DNA of 64,000 bases from Nostoc sp. DedSLP01 (GCA_034530875.2 JAVRCJ020000017.1:1-64000), one strand, 5' to 3'; positions 8,710-15,800 are shown, numbered from the stretch's first letter. Numbers and translations are program-made. Notes: a model not told the origin generated them from the letters alone.

Positions 8710-9825
8710 ATGAGAAAGAGGAGAGGATTGTTGATTGAGGTGGGGGTGGTGGTAGCGATCGCACTTTCCCTCATAATTATTATGCCAGTGGTGCTGTCAG
8801 AGTTTCGGCTGAATTTGTTGGGCAGGTTTTTATCGCTGGCGATCGCGGCTTTGGGTATCGATTTGATTTGGGGGTATACTGGTTTACTAAGTTTGGGACA
8901 TGGTATTTTCTTTGGTTTGGGTGGATATGCGATCGCTATGTACCTGAAACTGCAAGTTCCCACTGGTGAATTACCCGATTTCATGGGACTTTATGGAGTT
9001 ACGGAACTTCCAGCATTTTGGCAACCTTTTTATTCTTTTCCTTTCACAATAGCTGCTGTAGTATTAATACCAGGTTTATTAGCAGGATTGTTGGGGTATT
9101 TAGTATTTAGAAATCGCCTCAAAGGAGTTTATTTTTCTATCTTGACTCAAGCCGGAACGATTGTATTTTTCAACTTTTTTAACGGTCAACAAAAGTTATT
9201 TAATGGTACGAATGGGCTGATAGATTTTACAACTTTATTTGGGGCAACAGTTAGCGATGCCAAAACGCAATTTGTATTTTACACCTTGACGGTGGTATTT
9301 CTCGCCGCTACCTATGCAATTTGTCGCTGGCTGACAAGCGGACGTTTTGGGAGATTGTTAATAGCGATTCGGGATGATGAAAATCGAGTTAGATTTTCAG
9401 GCTATGACCCTACAGATTTCAAGGTTTTGGTGTTTGGTGTTTCCGGAGCGATCGCAGGCATAGCAGGAGCATTTTACACCATTCAAAGTGGTTCTGTTTC
9501 ACCCAGAGCAATGGATATTGCTTTTTCGATTGAAATGGTAATTTGGGTAGCTGTGGGAGGACGTGCTACTTTAATTGGTGCAATTGTCGGCACTTTATTA
9601 GTTAATTATGCTCGGACTTTTTTAAGCGAACAATTTGCTGAAATCTGGCTATTTTTCCAAGGCGCACTATTTTTAATAGTCGTTACAGTCCTTCCTGACG
9701 GCATAGTAGGATGGTTGCGTAGCCAGAATATTTCTCTTGTCAAACGCCGTCAAGAAATTGCTACATACCCGGCTTTAGAAGAAGACGCTGAAGTACAACA
9801 TGAACGCCAAAATATTGGAAACTGA
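8710..9825 (+). CDS. urtC: Urea ABC transporter permease
   Basis: DLIWGYTGLLSLGHG, LPDFM and AIRDDENRVRFSGY motifs. Confidence 0.95.
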   Translation: MRKRRGLLIEVGVVVAIALSLIIIMPVVLSEFRLNLLGRFLSLAIAALGIDLIWGYTGLLSLGHGIFFGLGGYAIAMYLKLQVPTGELPDFMGLYGVTELPAFWQPFYSFPFTIAAVVLIPGLLAGLLGYLVFRNRLKGVYFSILTQAGTIVFFNFFNGQQKLFNGTNGLIDFTTLFGATVSDAKTQFVFYTLTVVFLAATYAICRWLTSGRFGRLLIAIRDDENRVRFSGYDPTDFKVLVFGVSGAIAGIAGAFYTIQSGSVSPRAMDIAFSIEMVIWVAVGGRATLIGAIVGTLLVNYARTFLSEQFAEIWLFFQGALFLIVVTVLPDGIVGWLRSQNISLVKRRQEIATYPALEEDAEVQHERQNIGN

Positions 9826-10549
9826 AAATGTAACTGTTAGCTTTGATGGTTTTAAAGCTATAAATCAGCTAAACTTTAGCATGGATGTGGGAGAACTGCG
9901 AGTAGTAATTGGCCCCAATGGTGCGGGAAAGACAACATTTTTGGATGTCATTACCGGGAAAGTCAAACCGACTATTGGGCGAGTTCTATTCAAAGGTAGA
10001 AACCTACGTTCTTTCTCCGAACATCAAATTGCGCGGCTGGGAATTGGGCGTAAATTTCAAACACCCAGAGTTTACCTGAATTTAACACCTCGTGAAAATT
10101 TAGAAATTACCAACAACCGCAATAAAAATGTCTTCTCTACTTTGTTTGGTAGTTCTAATACTACTGAAAAGAAGAATATTAAGGGCTTGTTAGAAACCAT
10201 CGGTTTAACTCCTAAAGCAGACATCCCAGCAGCTTTACTTTCTCACGGTGAAAAGCAACGTTTAGAAATTGGGATGTTAGTGGCACAGTCTCCTGATTTA
10301 TTACTAGTTGATGAACCAGTTGCTGGTTTAACAGATGAGGAAACCTACAACGTTGGCGAACTACTTTTAGCTTTAGCGCAAAGTCATTCAATCTTAGTTA
10401 TCGAACACGATATGGAATTCGTGCGTCAAATTGCTCGGAAAGTAACAGTACTACATCAAGGTTCGGTGCTATGCGAAGGTAATTTTGAAGAAGTACAAAA
10501 TGACTCTCGCGTGATTGAAGTATATTTAGGAAAACAGGAAGATTTATAG
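9800..10549 (+). CDS. urtD: Urea ABC transporter ATP-binding protein
   Basis: GPNGAGKT, LSHGEKQRLE and DEPVAG motifs; operon position. Confidence 0.95.
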   Translation: MNAKILETENVTVSFDGFKAINQLNFSMDVGELRVVIGPNGAGKTTFLDVITGKVKPTIGRVLFKGRNLRSFSEHQIARLGIGRKFQTPRVYLNLTPRENLEITNNRNKNVFSTLFGSSNTTEKKNIKGLLETIGLTPKADIPAALLSHGEKQRLEIGMLVAQSPDLLLVDEPVAGLTDEETYNVGELLLALAQSHSILVIEHDMEFVRQIARKVTVLHQGSVLCEGNFEEVQNDSRVIEVYLGKQEDL

Positions 10550-10639
10550 TAAAAAAGCTCTTTAACAGTTATCAGTTAGAGACTGCTTGTAAAGCGATCG
10601 CAATGTCAATTAAACCTTACTCAAAATTGCGATCGCAAT

Positions 10640-11230
10640 TTATCTTTCAGCTTGATTTACTGCATCAAAGATTTGTGATACTTTGAGATTTAGTTGGCTA
10701 AATTGTGGAGATACAACTAAATCATTACCAGCAAAGTTACCTATTTCAGTATAAGTTTTGTCAATAAGTTCTAAGATTAATATAGTTTGAGTTTCGGGGT
10801 CAATAATCCAATATTCAGGAATACCACAATCTTGATACTGCGATCGCTTGGCGATAAAATCTCTATCTCGTTGTAATTCTCCTGGGCTAACTACTTCAAT
10901 CACCAGTAGAGGAGGTAGCATCTCTAAACGAACAGTATTACGTTTTGCTAACTGCTGAATATGCTCTTCCCTAATAATTGTTAGGTCAGGATAACGGTTT
11001 CTGGGTTCTCCTCTAACTTCCAGTTCTAAACCATGTCCTCGCACTCTATCTATCCCTACAATTAACGCAAAAATTAGGAAAAGACGATTGGCAATCTGAA
11101 CATTAATTCCTGATTCTGGAGGCATCTCGATTAACTCTCCATTAAACAACTCATAGAGTTTATCTGAGCCATCATCATAAGATAAGTATTCTTCAAAGCT
11201 TTGAAATCTATGTTTAATTTGTAGCATCAC
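10640..11230 (-). CDS. Uma2-family endonuclease
   Basis: YELFNGELIEMPPES, PDL, VIEVVSPG and GIPEYWIIDP motifs. Confidence 0.92.
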   Translation of the reverse strand: MMLQIKHRFQSFEEYLSYDDGSDKLYELFNGELIEMPPESGINVQIANRLFLIFALIVGIDRVRGHGLELEVRGEPRNRYPDLTIIREEHIQQLAKRNTVRLEMLPPLLVIEVVSPGELQRDRDFIAKRSQYQDCGIPEYWIIDPETQTILILELIDKTYTEIGNFAGNDLVVSPQFSQLNLKVSQIFDAVNQAER

Positions 11231-11310
11231 AGTTGCTCCATGATGAGTCTCAATGCAAGTTTAGCCGATTTTGCACCAGGCAAACGGAACTTGCCAATAG
11301 TCGCTTGCTT

Positions 11311-11919
11311 CTATTTTCCTGGTAATTCTGGACGGTTTGCGCTGTTAAATACCTCATCTACTGTTAGCGTCCAATTAGCAATTACCACTGATTCCATACG
11401 AGTTGCACCCGTAAATACCTTATCCTCATACTGTCCCTCCACCCACTGGCAAATCGTAAATTGTTGCATTTGTGCGTCAACAATCCAATACTCCAATATT
11501 TCCCTAGCGGCATACTCCGTCCGTTTGTAGCGATAATCACGAACGCGGTTAGCCGTTCCTGGAGAAACAATTTCAATTACTAGTACAGGCGGCGGCATAT
11601 CACGGGTGAGGGTAGCACGAGTAGCATTCGCAAGGGCAGCGTAAGATTCTTCAGTGTGAACCATCAAGTCAGGTAAACGACATCTCGCCCGTCGCCCCGC
11701 CACCTCAATTTCTGTATCCTTATGAGCAACTAAATAAAATGGGAAATGTTTTAGGAGTTCAACAAATAAAAATCTTGCCAGATTGCTATTTTCTTGACTT
11801 TCTGGTGGTATCTCGACTAGTTCACCATCCACCAACTCATAGCGCGTGTCCGTACCATCGTCATAAGCAAGATATTCCTCGAAGGTCAGCAGTTTTTGGT
11901 TTTTGGCCGTTTGGATCAT
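11311..11919 (-). CDS. Uma2-family endonuclease
   Basis: [33 protein letters not shown] and EYWIVD motifs. Confidence 0.92.
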
Positions 11920-12134
11920 TTGCTTTGCCTTCTTACCCTACACCCAAGATTTTACTAAAATCTGGACACCAATTTCGATTGGCGATCGCCTAGCTAAACC
12001 AGCGTTGGCTTAATTGCAGGCTATGCCTAGCTTGCTTAAGCCAGAGGTAGAAGCACCTTTGAGATTTTAGATTGTTCAATCCAAAATCTTAAATGTCAAA
12101 TTATACCAATTTTAAGAATAGACATCTTGCAAAA

Positions 12135-12287
12135 TTAACTGCCAGGAACAGATAAGCTTGGCTTAACGCATAACTGCAATTGATTGATGTGGATAAGAAA
12201 CTTTGTAGATGCGAGTGCTTTGACAACACCAGTCACCAGAAATACAATGCCAACCACCAAAGAACTTATAACAGAAAGTGAATGCAT
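12135..12287 (-). pseudogene. Truncated MauE/DoxX-like membrane protein (50 aa, N-terminal helix only)
   Basis: Manual translation MHSLSVISSLVVGIVFLVTGVVKALASTKFLIHINQLQLCVKPSLSVPGS*. G-x-VFLxxGxxK resembles MauE/DoxX N-termini. Not in the ORF track. Confidence 0.55.
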
Positions 12288-12336
12288 AATGCTGGCGATC
12301 GCTATTTAATCGTAATAGTTAATAGTGTGCAAATCG

Positions 12337-12606
12337 TTAATCATTTACACAAGGATTTCCAAAAGCTGGGTTAAGTAGACCAATTACATTGACACTATTA
12401 ACACAAACGTTAACGGGTACATGAACGGGTACTTGAAGAAGGTTCCCCGAAAGAACTCCAGGACTACCAACAGCAGCACCTTCTGCACTTGAATCTCCGC
12501 CAACTATAGCCAATAAATCAGCATCATCTAGTTCTTCAAATAATTCTCTATCTTCTTGAGTGAGTGCAGGTGCTTGTTTTGTTGCTTGTTTCTTAGTTGA
12601 AAATAT
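12337..12606 (-). CDS. Chaplin (DUF320)-domain peptide with double-glycine leader; start codon ATA or lost
   Basis: Manual translation IFSTKKQATKQAPALTQEDRELFEELDDADLLAIVGG|DSSAEGAAVGSPGVLSGNLLQVPVHVPVNVCVNSVNVIGLLNPAFGNPCVND*. No in-frame ATG; in-frame TAA at 12612-12610. Confidence 0.85.
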   Translation of the reverse strand: MFSTKKQATKQAPALTQEDRELFEELDDADLLAIVGGDSSAEGAAVGSPGVLSGNLLQVPVHVPVNVCVNSVNVIGLLNPAFGNPCVND

Positions 12607-12943
12607 TTTTTAATAGTTTGTCAACAGTTTTTAGCGAATATCTTACTTTTCTTACTTTTCTTACTTAGAGATATGAAAATAACAGTTAAATTCTCAAGAA
12701 AGTAGATATCTCATTTATAAATTATCACATCAAAGAATTCAAAAGTCGGAAATCTAGAGGAGCCATTTGTGTAATCTCTGTACCAGAGACTGCACCAACA
12801 CCAACACTATATTGATTTGCATTCGCAATCAGGTATCATAAGAGATTAACCAGACTCCTAATGAACCATAGTTTATGAGTGTCTTAACAGAGTGATTGCT
12901 AGTTCAAGACTTGCTATCAAAACTAACAGTTGAAAATTATTTT

Positions 12944-13764: not shown

Positions 13765-14493
13765 CTAAATTTTACTTTTCACTCCCAAATTACTCAATTG
13801 TGAATTCTCATTCATCAAATCTGCTGCTTCTGCTAAAAGTTGATGCTGTTCCTGTTGAATAGCTTCTAAACGGCTAGCAATTTCTGTCAATCTTAATTGC
13901 TTATTTTTTGGTAAATCTTCAGGTAATAAAACTGGCAGATTATCAGTTTTCTTGTTAGTACTGATTCGTTGTATAGTAAAATTACCAACTTGAGTTAACG
14001 ATATCAAACTCACTTTAACTAAAGCTTGAAGTAACTTGATTGGAAATTTGAGTATCGACCAACTAGCTGTTTCAATGACGCGAGCGATCGCTTTGATAAT
14101 ACTCCACAATAAAGCAAGCGCAAACAGCAAAATTACAACACTAATAAATGGATGGTTAGCTGCCCAACTTCCTATTTGAATTAAACGCAAAATTACAGGA
14201 TGTTGTATCAACCAATCATTCACAGAAGCGTTAATCGCTGTTTCCACAGCTCCCGATGTTGTATTTTTAAACTGTTCAGCCGTTTGCCAAGTTTGTTCTA
14301 AACTTGTCGTTACGGTATCAATTGCTGTATTAGTCGTCGTTGTTGCTTTTGCTTTTAAAGATTCGCCAACTTGTTGTACAGAGTTCGTTAACAAATTAAC
14401 CCTCTGGTTGGCGATATCTTTCGCTGTTTGCAAGCGTTGCAACACTTCTTCAGGTAAATTTATCTCTATGGGAAGTGCCATAAAAAATTTCAC
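13765..14493 (-). CDS. Hypothetical membrane protein with coiled-coil segments
   Basis: 242-aa ORF with a central hydrophobic segment, directly after the P450 gene; start could be ATG 14481. Confidence 0.7.
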   Translation of the reverse strand: MKFFMALPIEINLPEEVLQRLQTAKDIANQRVNLLTNSVQQVGESLKAKATTTTNTAIDTVTTSLEQTWQTAEQFKNTTSGAVETAINASVNDWLIQHPVILRLIQIGSWAANHPFISVVILLFALALLWSIIKAIARVIETASWSILKFPIKLLQALVKVSLISLTQVGNFTIQRISTNKKTDNLPVLLPEDLPKNKQLRLTEIASRLEAIQQEQHQLLAEAADLMNENSQLSNLGVKSKI

Positions 14494-15800
14494 TGAGGCT
14501 TAAATCGAACCCGCAACCCATCTTTCGGACGATTAGGAATACCCATTGTCTCCAAATTTTGATTGGGTAAGATTTCCCAATCATAACTGCGTAGAAGATG
14601 GGCAGCAATAATTTTCATTTCCATTTTGGCAAAAGCTATCCCAATACACACGCGCGGCCCGCCCCCAAAACCAACTAAACTAAAGGGATATTGTTTGTGT
14701 TCTTGACGTTGCGGGCTAAATCTATCTGGATCGAAACATTCAGGTTGAGAATAAATTTCTTCGAGACGATGAGTTAAGGCAATGGAATAGTATAATTTCC
14801 AACCAGCAGGAACATAAAAGCCGTTAAATTCAAATTCTCGAACAACACTACGAAATCCCGCACCAACTGGCGGACGTAGCCTTTCAACCTCCCATAAAAC
14901 TCGATCTAAATAAGGCATTTGCCCCAATTGTTCTAAAGTTACAGAATCAACATCGGTAAATTTTAGTTGTTCTTCCCTGGCACGTAGCAGTACCTCAGGA
15001 TGACGGGCTAATTCTAGACACAACCAAGTCAACATTGTGGTTGTAGTGTCATGTCCAGCAAAAAGTAATAGTAGCGCTTGGGCAATGATTTCTTGTTCGC
15101 TAAAACTGTCACCATCTTCATCTCTCGCTTGCACTAACAAACTCAGAACATCTTTAGTTGGATTTTGCTGGCGTTCTCTGACGACCTTAGTTACATGCTC
15201 TAAAATTTGATTGCGAGCTGCTACGGCTTTACCAAATTTAGTAAACGGTAAAGGCAAGGGATTAATAGCAAACAGCCCATTTGACAGAGTTGTAAACAAT
15301 TGGCTCAAGCGCGCACCTTCAAGACCAGGAACTGTCCCTAATAGTAACTGACTAGCAATATCAAATGTCAGCTGTTTAAATTCTCCAAACCAAGTAAACT
15401 CCTGTTGTTTTTTCCACTTTTGTAGATAGCTACGCGTGATATATTCCATTGTGGAGACGTAATTTGCTAATGCTGGCCCGTGTAGGGCAGGCATCATCAA
15501 ACGGCGATTTCTGCGATGTTCTTCCCCATCTTGCAAAAAAAGCGATTCGCCAAGCAATATTTTGAAATTAGCTGGCCATCCCTCCCGCCAAGAAAAATCC
15601 TGCATATTGCTGGACAAGACGAACTCTAACGCCTCAGGCCCCACCATTACCACAGTTGGTCTGCCAAGAATATGAGTTTTAAAGATAGGCCCGTACTGGC
15701 GATAGCGTTTTTTAGAAAAGTCGCGGTCAAAAAAAAACGAAAGTGTCTCACCTAATATAGGCAAACCAAAACTGCCAGGAGGAATTTTATTATTTGCCAT
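14490..15800 (-). CDS. Cytochrome P450 (CYP120-like)
   Basis: PPGSFGLP, AGHDTT I-helix, EVERL (ExxR), FDPDRF and FGGGPRVCIG heme-Cys motifs. Confidence 0.93.
   Translation of the reverse strand: MANNKIPPGSFGLPILGETLSFFFDRDFSKKRYRQYGPIFKTHILGRPTVVMVGPEALEFVLSSNMQDFSWREGWPANFKILLGESLFLQDGEEHRRNRRLMMPALHGPALANYVSTMEYITRSYLQKWKKQQEFTWFGEFKQLTFDIASQLLLGTVPGLEGARLSQLFTTLSNGLFAINPLPLPFTKFGKAVAARNQILEHVTKVVRERQQNPTKDVLSLLVQARDEDGDSFSEQEIIAQALLLLFAGHDTTTTMLTWLCLELARHPEVLLRAREEQLKFTDVDSVTLEQLGQMPYLDRVLWEVERLRPPVGAGFRSVVREFEFNGFYVPAGWKLYYSIALTHRLEEIYSQPECFDPDRFSPQRQEHKQYPFSLVGFGGGPRVCIGIAFAKMEMKIIAAHLLRSYDWEILPNQNLETMGIPNRPKDGLRVRFKPQ

Follow-up and report, generated by a model that had tools for sequence, protein, structure and literature searches.

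The window, a stretch of 64,000 nucleotides, corresponds to contig 17 of an 8.57-Mb genome in 113 contigs, which was estimated to be 99.78% complete with 1.82% contamination. On its minus strand, positions 12337-12609 encode, by translation, a 52-residue chaplin domain behind a leader sequence reading ...ELFEELDDADLLAIVGG. The chaplin is located in a 2.3-kb island between the genes urtD and urtE, and the features of this region are the following.

9800..10549, plus strand: urtD, left border of the island (TIGR03411, an NCBIfam equivalog model, 371.6 bits; cut-off 304)
10640-11230 and 11311-11919, minus strand: two genes of the Uma2 family (putative restriction endonucleases; PF05685, E 2e-31 and 1e-30)
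12130..12287, minus strand: remnant of a MauE-thioredoxin gene, 158 nt, composed of the first 118 (12170-12287) and the last 40 (12130-12169)
12337-12339, minus strand: stop codon of the chaplin frame
12340..12495, minus strand: mature chaplin domain (PF03777), 52 codons (DSSAEG to CVND) that include both Cys
12496..12609, minus strand: remnant of the double-glycine leader, KIFSTKKQATKQAPALTQEDRELFEELDDADLLAIVGG, without a start codon
12496-12501, minus strand: GG codons of the leader
12610..12612, minus strand: in-frame TAA, at the place of the Leu2 codon TTA of the relatives (DNA alignment)
12619..12690, minus strand: conserved upstream element, with about three 9-nt direct repeats (of the AAGTAAGAA type, 12641-12667) followed by CTGTTGACAA
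12619-12624, minus strand: TTGACA within CTGTTGACAA
12896..13642, plus strand: urtE, right border of the island (TIGR03410, an NCBIfam equivalog model, 330.9 bits; cut-off 286)

Translation of 12337-12612 on the minus strand gives, from stop to stop, KIFSTKKQATKQAPALTQEDRELFEELDDADLLAIVGGDSSAEGAAVGSPGVLSGNLLQVPVHVPVNVCVNSVNVIGLLNPAFGNPCVND, which is identical to the reading of an earlier first-pass annotation of this DNA and divides into leader remnant and mature part as KIFSTKKQATKQAPALTQEDRELFEELDDADLLAIVGG DSSAEGAAVGSPGVLSGNLLQVPVHVPVNVCVNSVNVIGLLNPAFGNPCVND. In a Pfam scan of the 89-residue peptide, PF03777 (ChpA-C) matched residues 37-88 with 88.4 bits (E 2.8e-25; the gathering score is 21 bits), covering profile positions 6-57 of 57, and the 52-residue mature part alone scored 89.8 bits (E 9.7e-26). 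Two Streptomyces chaplins, P0018 and P0032, are identical to the mature part in 49 of its 52 positions, and the first residues of another protein, P0021, match its first 31. Both cysteines are present (C68 and C86 in the 89-residue peptide), as in all 17 of the cyanobacterial sequences aligned; a chaplin variant without Cys, P0318, was found in the database searches described below. The chaplin signature with two Cys after the GG, and the likeness to mature short chaplins of Streptomyces beginning with DS, both proposed in the first-pass annotation, were therefore borne out.

The N-terminus of the window peptide has neither a hydrophobic stretch nor a Sec signal, and its leader is acidic and ends in GG. 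Double-glycine leaders typically end in GG (or GA/AG) and carry hydrophobic residues at about positions -4, -7, -12 and -15. In an alignment of 17 leaders (the window peptide and 16 precursors from 15 relatives) the pattern was F(-15)EEL(-12)DDxDL(-7)Lxx[VIF](-3)GG, and the window leader agrees with the consensus, its F, L and L being invariant in all 17. In total, F, EEL, DD, D, LL and the last G were invariant throughout (FEELDDxDLLxxxGG), while a single precursor, that of L026, ended in AG instead of GG. A GG leader without a Sec signal, as originally described, was thus upheld. In a scan of the window peptide no NCBIfam model reached its cut-off, which leaves the leader outside all leader families of that collection. 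The Pfam ComC model scored 14.8 bits (E 0.024), below its cut-off of 20.4; since this match is sub-threshold, the double-glycine reading derives from the conservation of the leader across the relatives.

Most (15 of 18) of the relatives encode a chaplin that starts with ATG and bears a GG or AG leader, and their precursors begin MLKIFSTKKQATKQ.... Of the others, L037 is a pseudogene whose leader is cut short and whose frame is interrupted by a TAA, and L040 and L041, both from the Nostoc genus, have a hydrophobic, signal-like N-terminus and a longer linker in place of the double-glycine leader; the expectation that homologues would share the GG leader thus held for the 15 relatives but not for L040 and L041. 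In L042, four residues of the chaplin core are missing. Moreover, one to three extra peptides with the same leaders and unrelated, variable cores were found in 10 of the 18 loci, among them a divergent chaplin (26 bits) and a two-Cys core that no Pfam model matched. The occurrence of the same leaders on other cores marks the leader as a reusable local module, which here carries a chaplin core.

The chaplin frame of the window opens straight after the TAA (12610-12612) and contains no internal stop over its 89 codons. The first ATG, GTG or TTG within it is the TTG at 12511-12513, a start that would yield only MAIVGG..., in an ORF of 58 residues that is the sole one listed for this frame. The full frame is missing from the ORF track because it has no canonical start codon, and the earlier statement that the region is absent from that track was therefore correct for the full frame but not for the 58-residue TTG ORF. 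The start assigned at position 12606 had to be abandoned, as the codon there is ATA and no ATG, GTG or TTG lies ahead of the leader core.

DNA alignment (BLASTN) indicated that homology to the chaplin genes of the relatives ends at 12610, and six relatives read A-ATG-TTA-AAA where the window reads C-TAT-TAA-AAA. The conserved upstream element starts 180 nt (L039) and 177 nt (L033) before the ATG, whereas in the window it abuts codon 2-3; in L027, the element precedes a different double-glycine peptide gene. Approximately 165 bp are absent between the element and codon 2-3 of the window, with the ribosome-binding site and the ATG gone and a TAA at codon 2. Of the 11 relatives examined, 10 have an AAGAG/AGGAG motif some 10 nt ahead of the ATG, which the window likewise lacks, and promoter calling on the minus strand gave no promoter-like site upstream of the window chaplin.

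A second deletion was observed in the adjacent MauE-thioredoxin gene, in which 765 bp internal to the gene are missing from the window (BLASTN against L027, L029, L033, L035 and L039); an ORF of 50 residues is listed at the remnant. When the intact partner protein was compared with the whole genome of the window, only this remnant matched. The protein-level match extends over 12048-12287 and includes two stops, and the boundaries of the remnant were taken from BLASTN instead. Both deletions are read from a draft assembly of 113 contigs. The window copy is probably a decayed remnant, a pseudogene that would not be translated. This comparison does not support the reading as a working hidden gene, since the window has lost the start codon, the ribosome-binding site and the stretch directly upstream of them, and its MauE partner is gutted. 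As the frame is free of stops, the decay may be recent, or a rare non-canonical start (ATA, 12604-12606) may give some product.

The codon use of the chaplin is AT-rich and host-like. The gene has a GC content of 0.393 and a GC3 of 0.135 (0.154 in the mature domain), which is below the 0.30-0.39 of six neighbouring genes and remote from any actinobacterial value, in agreement with the AT-rich, non-Streptomyces codons noted in the first-pass annotation. The urt genes share 87% DNA identity with those beside the chaplin island in the relatives L029 and L032, and the second Uma2 gene is 89% identical at the DNA level to its equivalent in L029 (BLASTN). Contaminating actinobacterial DNA, which had been named in advance as a finding that would undo the proposal, was excluded by the GC of 0.39 and the GC3 of 0.135, by the Nostoc-type urtD and urtE flanks and by the presence of homologues on finished chromosomes of 7.3 and 7.8 Mb.

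A whole-genome search detected PF03777 in 19 of 389 genomes (∼5%) of the family to which the window belongs: 15 of 127 in genus g1 (window included), three of eight in g149 and one in g165. The genome of the window contains a single match, and two matches in the family are carried by contigs 7.29 and 7.83 Mb long. In a sample of 401 genomes from the order, and in another of 401 genomes from the phylum, PF03777 was found only in the window's own genome. The loci of the 18 relatives were analyzed over about 8 kb on either side of each PF03777 match.

In a search of 5.8 billion proteins, 3823 matches were obtained at E <= 0.001, of which the 120 best were examined. The best 14 are proteins of 80-103 residues with 83-100% query coverage, in which both leader and domain are present, and 12 of these 14 had already been named "chaplin" by NCBI or nr (Nostoc, Brasilonema and Tolypothrix). 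In the relatives the gene is therefore not hidden, as most of their full-length proteins carry the name; the window copy escaped the ORF track save for the 58-residue ORF. The other 106 of the best 120 matches covered 44-61% of the query, i.e., the domain only, and where named came from Streptomyces or Kitasatospora. A profile of 17 precursors was also compared with 1.84 billion representative proteins, and gave 1284 matches at E <= 0.001. Among the 150 of these that were listed, nearly all were multi-domain chaplins and only P0318 covered the leader, so that this search says little about double-glycine-leader chaplins outside the family. Chaplin-domain proteins were very numerous in Actinobacteria in both the protein and the profile searches.

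A tree of 134 chaplin domains was built on 52 columns, and many of its forks are unresolved. The 19 cyanobacterial genome rows fell into a group of 23 rows together with four Streptomyces short chaplins (SH-aLRT 87), and in this same 52-column tree the subgroup of the window joined three of those four at 98. A single cyanobacterial clade was not rejected by the AU test (p 0.667), and the tree constrained to such a clade had a likelihood higher by 16.5 log units. The horizontal acquisition put forward at the outset is compatible with these results, in that both distribution and tree fit acquisition from Actinobacteria; the position of four Streptomyces proteins among the cyanobacterial rows, on only 52 columns, means however that the tree does not fix the number or direction of transfers. 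Acquisition from Actinobacteria, a direction that we infer, would be the parsimonious interpretation. The transfer would have been old enough for full amelioration of the codons, with very strong purifying selection on the peptide.

The genes neighbouring the chaplin were analyzed by clustering the ORFs of all loci and scanning representatives. In 13 of the 18 loci of the relatives, the gene immediately downstream of the chaplin encodes a partner protein of 305-321 residues, the MauE-thioredoxin fusion; it is missing in the other five. The MauE domain was recognized by PF07291 (57.5 bits), while matches of the C-terminal domain to MauD and StoA models were weak (17-19 bits against cut-offs of 189-210). 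In the AlphaFold model of the partner (pLDDT 87.9, pTM 0.75) the C-terminal domain adopts a predicted thioredoxin fold, and the closest structures in Foldseek were ResA, FetE, StoA and CcmG (E about 1e-5, target TM 0.62-0.65). Two redox motifs were invariant in all 66 family members, namely a CxC located in the loop that connects helices 3 and 4, and a CxxC in the thioredoxin domain. Counts of K and R place both motifs on the predicted cytoplasmic side, which conflicts with the fact that every structural neighbour of the partner is an extracytoplasmic oxidoreductase. The 56 database homologues of the partner come, where named, from Nostoc, Tolypothrix, Brasilonema, Okeania, Dapis, Xenococcus and Crinalium. 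Since these are all cyanobacterial, the partner appears to be native rather than co-transferred with the chaplin.

A C39-peptidase ABC exporter and a HlyD adaptor protein flank the chaplin in 3 of the 18 loci (L026, L028 and L038, all from g149), in the order HlyD - chaplin - MauE-thioredoxin - C39-ABC. The HlyD protein scored 338 bits with TIGR03794 (cut-off 156), and the C39-ABC protein 1156 bits with TIGR03796 (cut-off 853). The C39 domain of L026 aligned to LahT150 (6mpz; E 5e-44) and to PCAT1 (4ry2; E 5e-18), and it retains the catalytic Cys, His and Asp at their positions. No C39-ABC exporter is present in the island of the window, and 13 C39-domain matches were found elsewhere in its genome. 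The neighbourhood that the first-pass annotation had suggested checking (MauE, C39-ABC and HlyD) was thus recovered in part of the relatives, but not in the window, whose MauE gene is gutted and whose island lacks the exporter. A complex prediction for the C39 domain of L026 with its own precursor gave weak support at a score of 0.55, versus 0.00 for the best of three controls, a value to be read in the light of similar complexes having been solved, so that memory is possible, and of a mark passed by 116 of 157 solved complexes and by 2 of 215 mismatched pairs, for which the passes at 0.60 or under comprise 18 of those 157 complexes plus both passing mismatches. Contact agreement between runs of this prediction was at least 69%, and the pLDDT of the partner chain at least 40.

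With regard to the site at which the MauE-thioredoxin partner acts, one-step export would also skip the periplasm.

Judged by their sequences, the cyanobacterial genes are a small group, restricted to the Nostoc family, in which a short chaplin core of actinobacterial type is placed behind a native cyanobacterial double-glycine leader. We assign a probability of about 0.7 to the joint reading that the gene is what it appears to be, that the window copy is a remnant, and that the intact relatives export their chaplins by a peptidase-ABC route. At the level of the family, re-routing of the chaplin from Sec to a peptidase-ABC exporter is well supported by the conservation of the leader and by the neighbourhoods in the relatives. 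In the intact relatives, the precursor would be translated from its ATG (MLKIF... or MINNK...), and its leader would be recognized by a C39-peptidase ABC exporter of the NHLP-bacteriocin type together with HlyD and cut after the GG, setting free a two-Cys chaplin of about 52 residues outside the cell. The adjoining MauE-thioredoxin fusion, with its CxC and CxxC motifs, may handle the Cys pair. The released peptide would most likely self-assemble in the manner of Streptomyces chaplins, as an amyloid or an amphipathic film; that its sequence is nearly the same as in structural chaplins speaks for biophysical properties having been conserved, but an amyloid or coat function, taken by itself, is a tentative proposal to which we give somewhat less than an even chance. 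The one-step export and the role in hormogonia or aerial growth put forward in the first-pass annotation are likewise candidate properties. In the window, the deletion of about 165 bp would have joined the upstream element to codon 2-3, taking the ribosome-binding site and the ATG, and the second deletion, of 765 bp, the body of the MauE-thioredoxin gene.

The Streptomyces short chaplins (ChpD-H type) resemble the present ones in having a single domain, some 52 residues long, in which both Cys, both hydrophobic stretches and a DS start are found. They carry a Sec signal, whereas the cyanobacterial chaplins have a double-glycine leader, a diderm host and AT-rich codons. The cyanobacterial neighbours also differ from those in Streptomyces, and include the MauE-thioredoxin fusion, more double-glycine peptides and, in one genus, C39-ABC and HlyD. 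In a review of Streptomyces development (PMC4255298), chaplins are treated within Actinobacteria only, as exoskeletal proteins for aerial growth and attachment, and Streptomyces alone is described as having rodlins, long chaplins anchored by sortase and control by BldN.

The closest functional precedent is EbfG/PteB, an amyloid-forming double-glycine cargo on a peptidase-containing ABC exporter. In Synechococcus elongatus PCC 7942, secretion of EbfG1-4 is reported to need the C39 cysteine of PteB (PMC4997328), and EbfG1-3 are reported to form amyloid and to build the biofilm matrix (PMC9981879). Unlike the present peptides, EbfG is not a chaplin domain (no sequence relationship was seen), and no MauE-thioredoxin partner is described in these two reports; the function of EbfG was shown experimentally, whereas that of the chaplin is a prediction. 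Similarity to NHLP bacteriocin export (TIGR03796/TIGR03794) lies in the exporter and HlyD protein of L026, which score above the equivalog cut-offs, and the cyanobacterial double-glycine "bacteriocin" clusters outlined by Wang et al. 2011 (PMC3140520) have several double-glycine precursors per locus, as do the chaplin loci. In contrast to such systems, the cargo here is a chaplin, and the words chaplin, MauE, thioredoxin and disulfide do not occur in the main text of that survey.

The partner protein shares its MauE domain and its CxxC thioredoxin fold with MauE/MauD of methylamine dehydrogenase maturation and with ResA, StoA and CcmG, but differs in that a single polypeptide carries both domains and has secreted peptides with two Cys as its counterparts. 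Similarly, LahT150 and PCAT1 have a C39 domain with the same catalytic Cys, His and Asp positions; these act on lanthipeptide and bacteriocin precursors of Firmicutes, while cleavage of the chaplin precursor is here a prediction. In agreement with the first-pass annotation, which knew of no such system, searches of one literature library yielded no description of cyanobacterial or double-glycine-leader chaplins. The automatic annotation of relatives as "chaplin" was already available, and what appears to be new is the combination of the chaplin domain with peptidase-ABC export.

The same loci could be interpreted as multi-peptide cassettes of a bacteriocin- or microcin-like nature, in which the chaplin is but one core, with a role in antagonism or signalling between cyanobacteria via membranes, the MauE-thioredoxin protein serving in maturation or immunity and self-assembly being secondary. 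Such an interpretation would account for the further double-glycine peptides with variable cores (one to three in 10 of the 18 loci) and for an exporter and adaptor that exceed the cut-offs of the NCBIfam NHLP bacteriocin export models. The peptide of a neighbouring gene (L032:8300-8527) exceeds the cut-off of the Type-A lantibiotic model (21.9 against 21.7 bits) and stays under that of Bacteriocin_IIc (20.9 against 27.1 bits). A patchy occurrence (19 of 389 genomes), with independent decay of the copies in G000 and G634, is what competition loci that a genome can do without typically show. There are also reports of microcins that self-assemble in biofilms. We nevertheless consider a bacteriocin cassette unlikely. 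The core is 94% identical to structural Streptomyces chaplins despite complete codon turnover, which suggests that the same self-assembly properties have been conserved, whereas antagonistic peptides usually diverge fast, and conservation of a small gene of the immunity type beside the chaplin was not seen. Moreover, double-glycine motifs are presented in PMC12267927 as no predictor of bacteriocin activity, and in the reports cited above for EbfG (PMC4997328, PMC9981879) the cyanobacterial double-glycine proteins tested are matrix proteins only.

With respect to the window copy itself, 89 open codons, an unblemished chaplin core and the C39 domains encoded elsewhere in the genome would be expected of a gene that still works, from an ATA (12604-12606) or TTG (12511-12513) start, with export by another C39 transporter. 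This is very unlikely, given that no ATG, GTG or TTG is present upstream of the leader core, that the AAGAG/AGGAG motif is missing and a promoter-like site was not called upstream on this strand, that the TTG start would leave a leader of six residues without the conserved helix, and that the partner gene is deleted. An artefact, in the form of actinobacterial contamination or of an assembly collapse in a repeated peptide cassette that mimicked the deletions, is more improbable still: the assembly is indeed a draft in 113 contigs, for which contamination is put at 1.82%, and the leaders and upstream elements are repeated in the loci of the relatives and can confuse short-read assemblers, but contamination is excluded by the composition, the urt flanks and the chromosomal homologues, and the junctions of the deletions do not coincide with repeat boundaries, one being inside the MauE gene and the other between the upstream element and codon 2.

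Re-routed export in the intact relatives, with a remnant in the window, is thus the reading that we retain. In its most extended and rather doubtful form, heterocyst-forming members of the Nostoc family would have captured an actinobacterial chaplin, exchanged the Sec signal for its own GG leader, and added a redox module and an exporter to obtain a working amyloid or hydrophobin-like coat, beside which the two-Cys cores would represent a home-grown radiation of the same material. If true, this would constitute a cross-phylum transfer of a tool for the air-water interface, re-plumbed for a diderm envelope. A near-identical core with a different export signal would be a clean natural experiment in moving a secreted amyloid away from Sec and onto a peptidase-ABC exporter, and would extend to filamentous nitrogen-fixing cyanobacteria the idea, derived from EbfG/PteB, that peptides secreted with a double-glycine leader are amyloids of the matrix and not bacteriocins. 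Conservation of the MauE-thioredoxin partner suggests that secreted peptides with two cysteines have a redox step of their own. The lesson of the window copy, together with the independently broken copy of L037, is that the locus is dispensable and decays.

The urtD and urtE genes are separated in the window by the chaplin island (10550-12895), and urt genes were also detected near the chaplin loci L029, L032 and L035 of relatives.

10550-12895, chaplin island, made up of a pair of Uma2 genes, what remains of the MauE gene, and the chaplin gene
14490-15800, minus strand, cytochrome P450 elsewhere in the window

The best NCBIfam match of the P450 was the RiPP-biosynthesis P450 ApyO, at 172 bits, far under the cut-off of 525 for this model.

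A conserved element at 12619-12690 (minus strand of the window) consists of a direct repeat of 9 nt in approximately three copies, of the type AAGTAAGAA or AAGTAGGAA, and then CTGTTGACAA. Several genomes have this element ahead of genes for double-glycine peptides, and it may represent a regulator site together with a -35 box. Its other copies are:

L039:8426-8519
L033:8435-8528
L027:8977-9046

Additional double-glycine-leader peptides are co-encoded with the chaplin in loci from relatives, and those with a two-Cys core are listed below. Short ORFs of tandem KAEVDTECAKHSNV-like repeats occur near chaplin loci as well; these may be genuine genes, or a repeat in the DNA may merely happen to read as open frames.

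L033:7513-7866, minus strand, two-Cys core peptide
L029:7513-7824, minus strand, two-Cys core peptide
L039:7508-7864, minus strand, two-Cys core peptide
L031:8566-8829, minus strand, two-Cys core peptide
L032:7356-7586, putative repeat ORF
L037:7698-7943, putative repeat ORF
L033:12802-13041, putative repeat ORF

The two-Cys core (...KPCIGLPAKANVQS...NPQNQQC...) is common to all four peptides and had no match in Pfam; the other cores in these loci (GIGNDNGINT... and a helical AKTALAEGIKQLE... type) were likewise without matches.

The chaplins themselves vary at the N-terminus. In two genomes of the window's genus, a hydrophobic signal-like sequence (MKNFVKLIVFSFLILVATVGLV...AFA) replaces the double-glycine leader:

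L040:7812-8171, plus strand, 119-aa chaplin (PF03777, 83.6 bits)
L041:7980-8339, minus strand, 119-aa chaplin (PF03777, 83.6 bits)

The MauE partner is absent from both loci, and both chaplins were placed among double-glycine-type sequences in the tree.

A further variant, the 96-aa metagenome/genome protein P0318 (PF03777, 39 bits), carries a double-glycine leader and lacks both cysteines. It could be used as a naturally occurring control in judging what the disulfide does.
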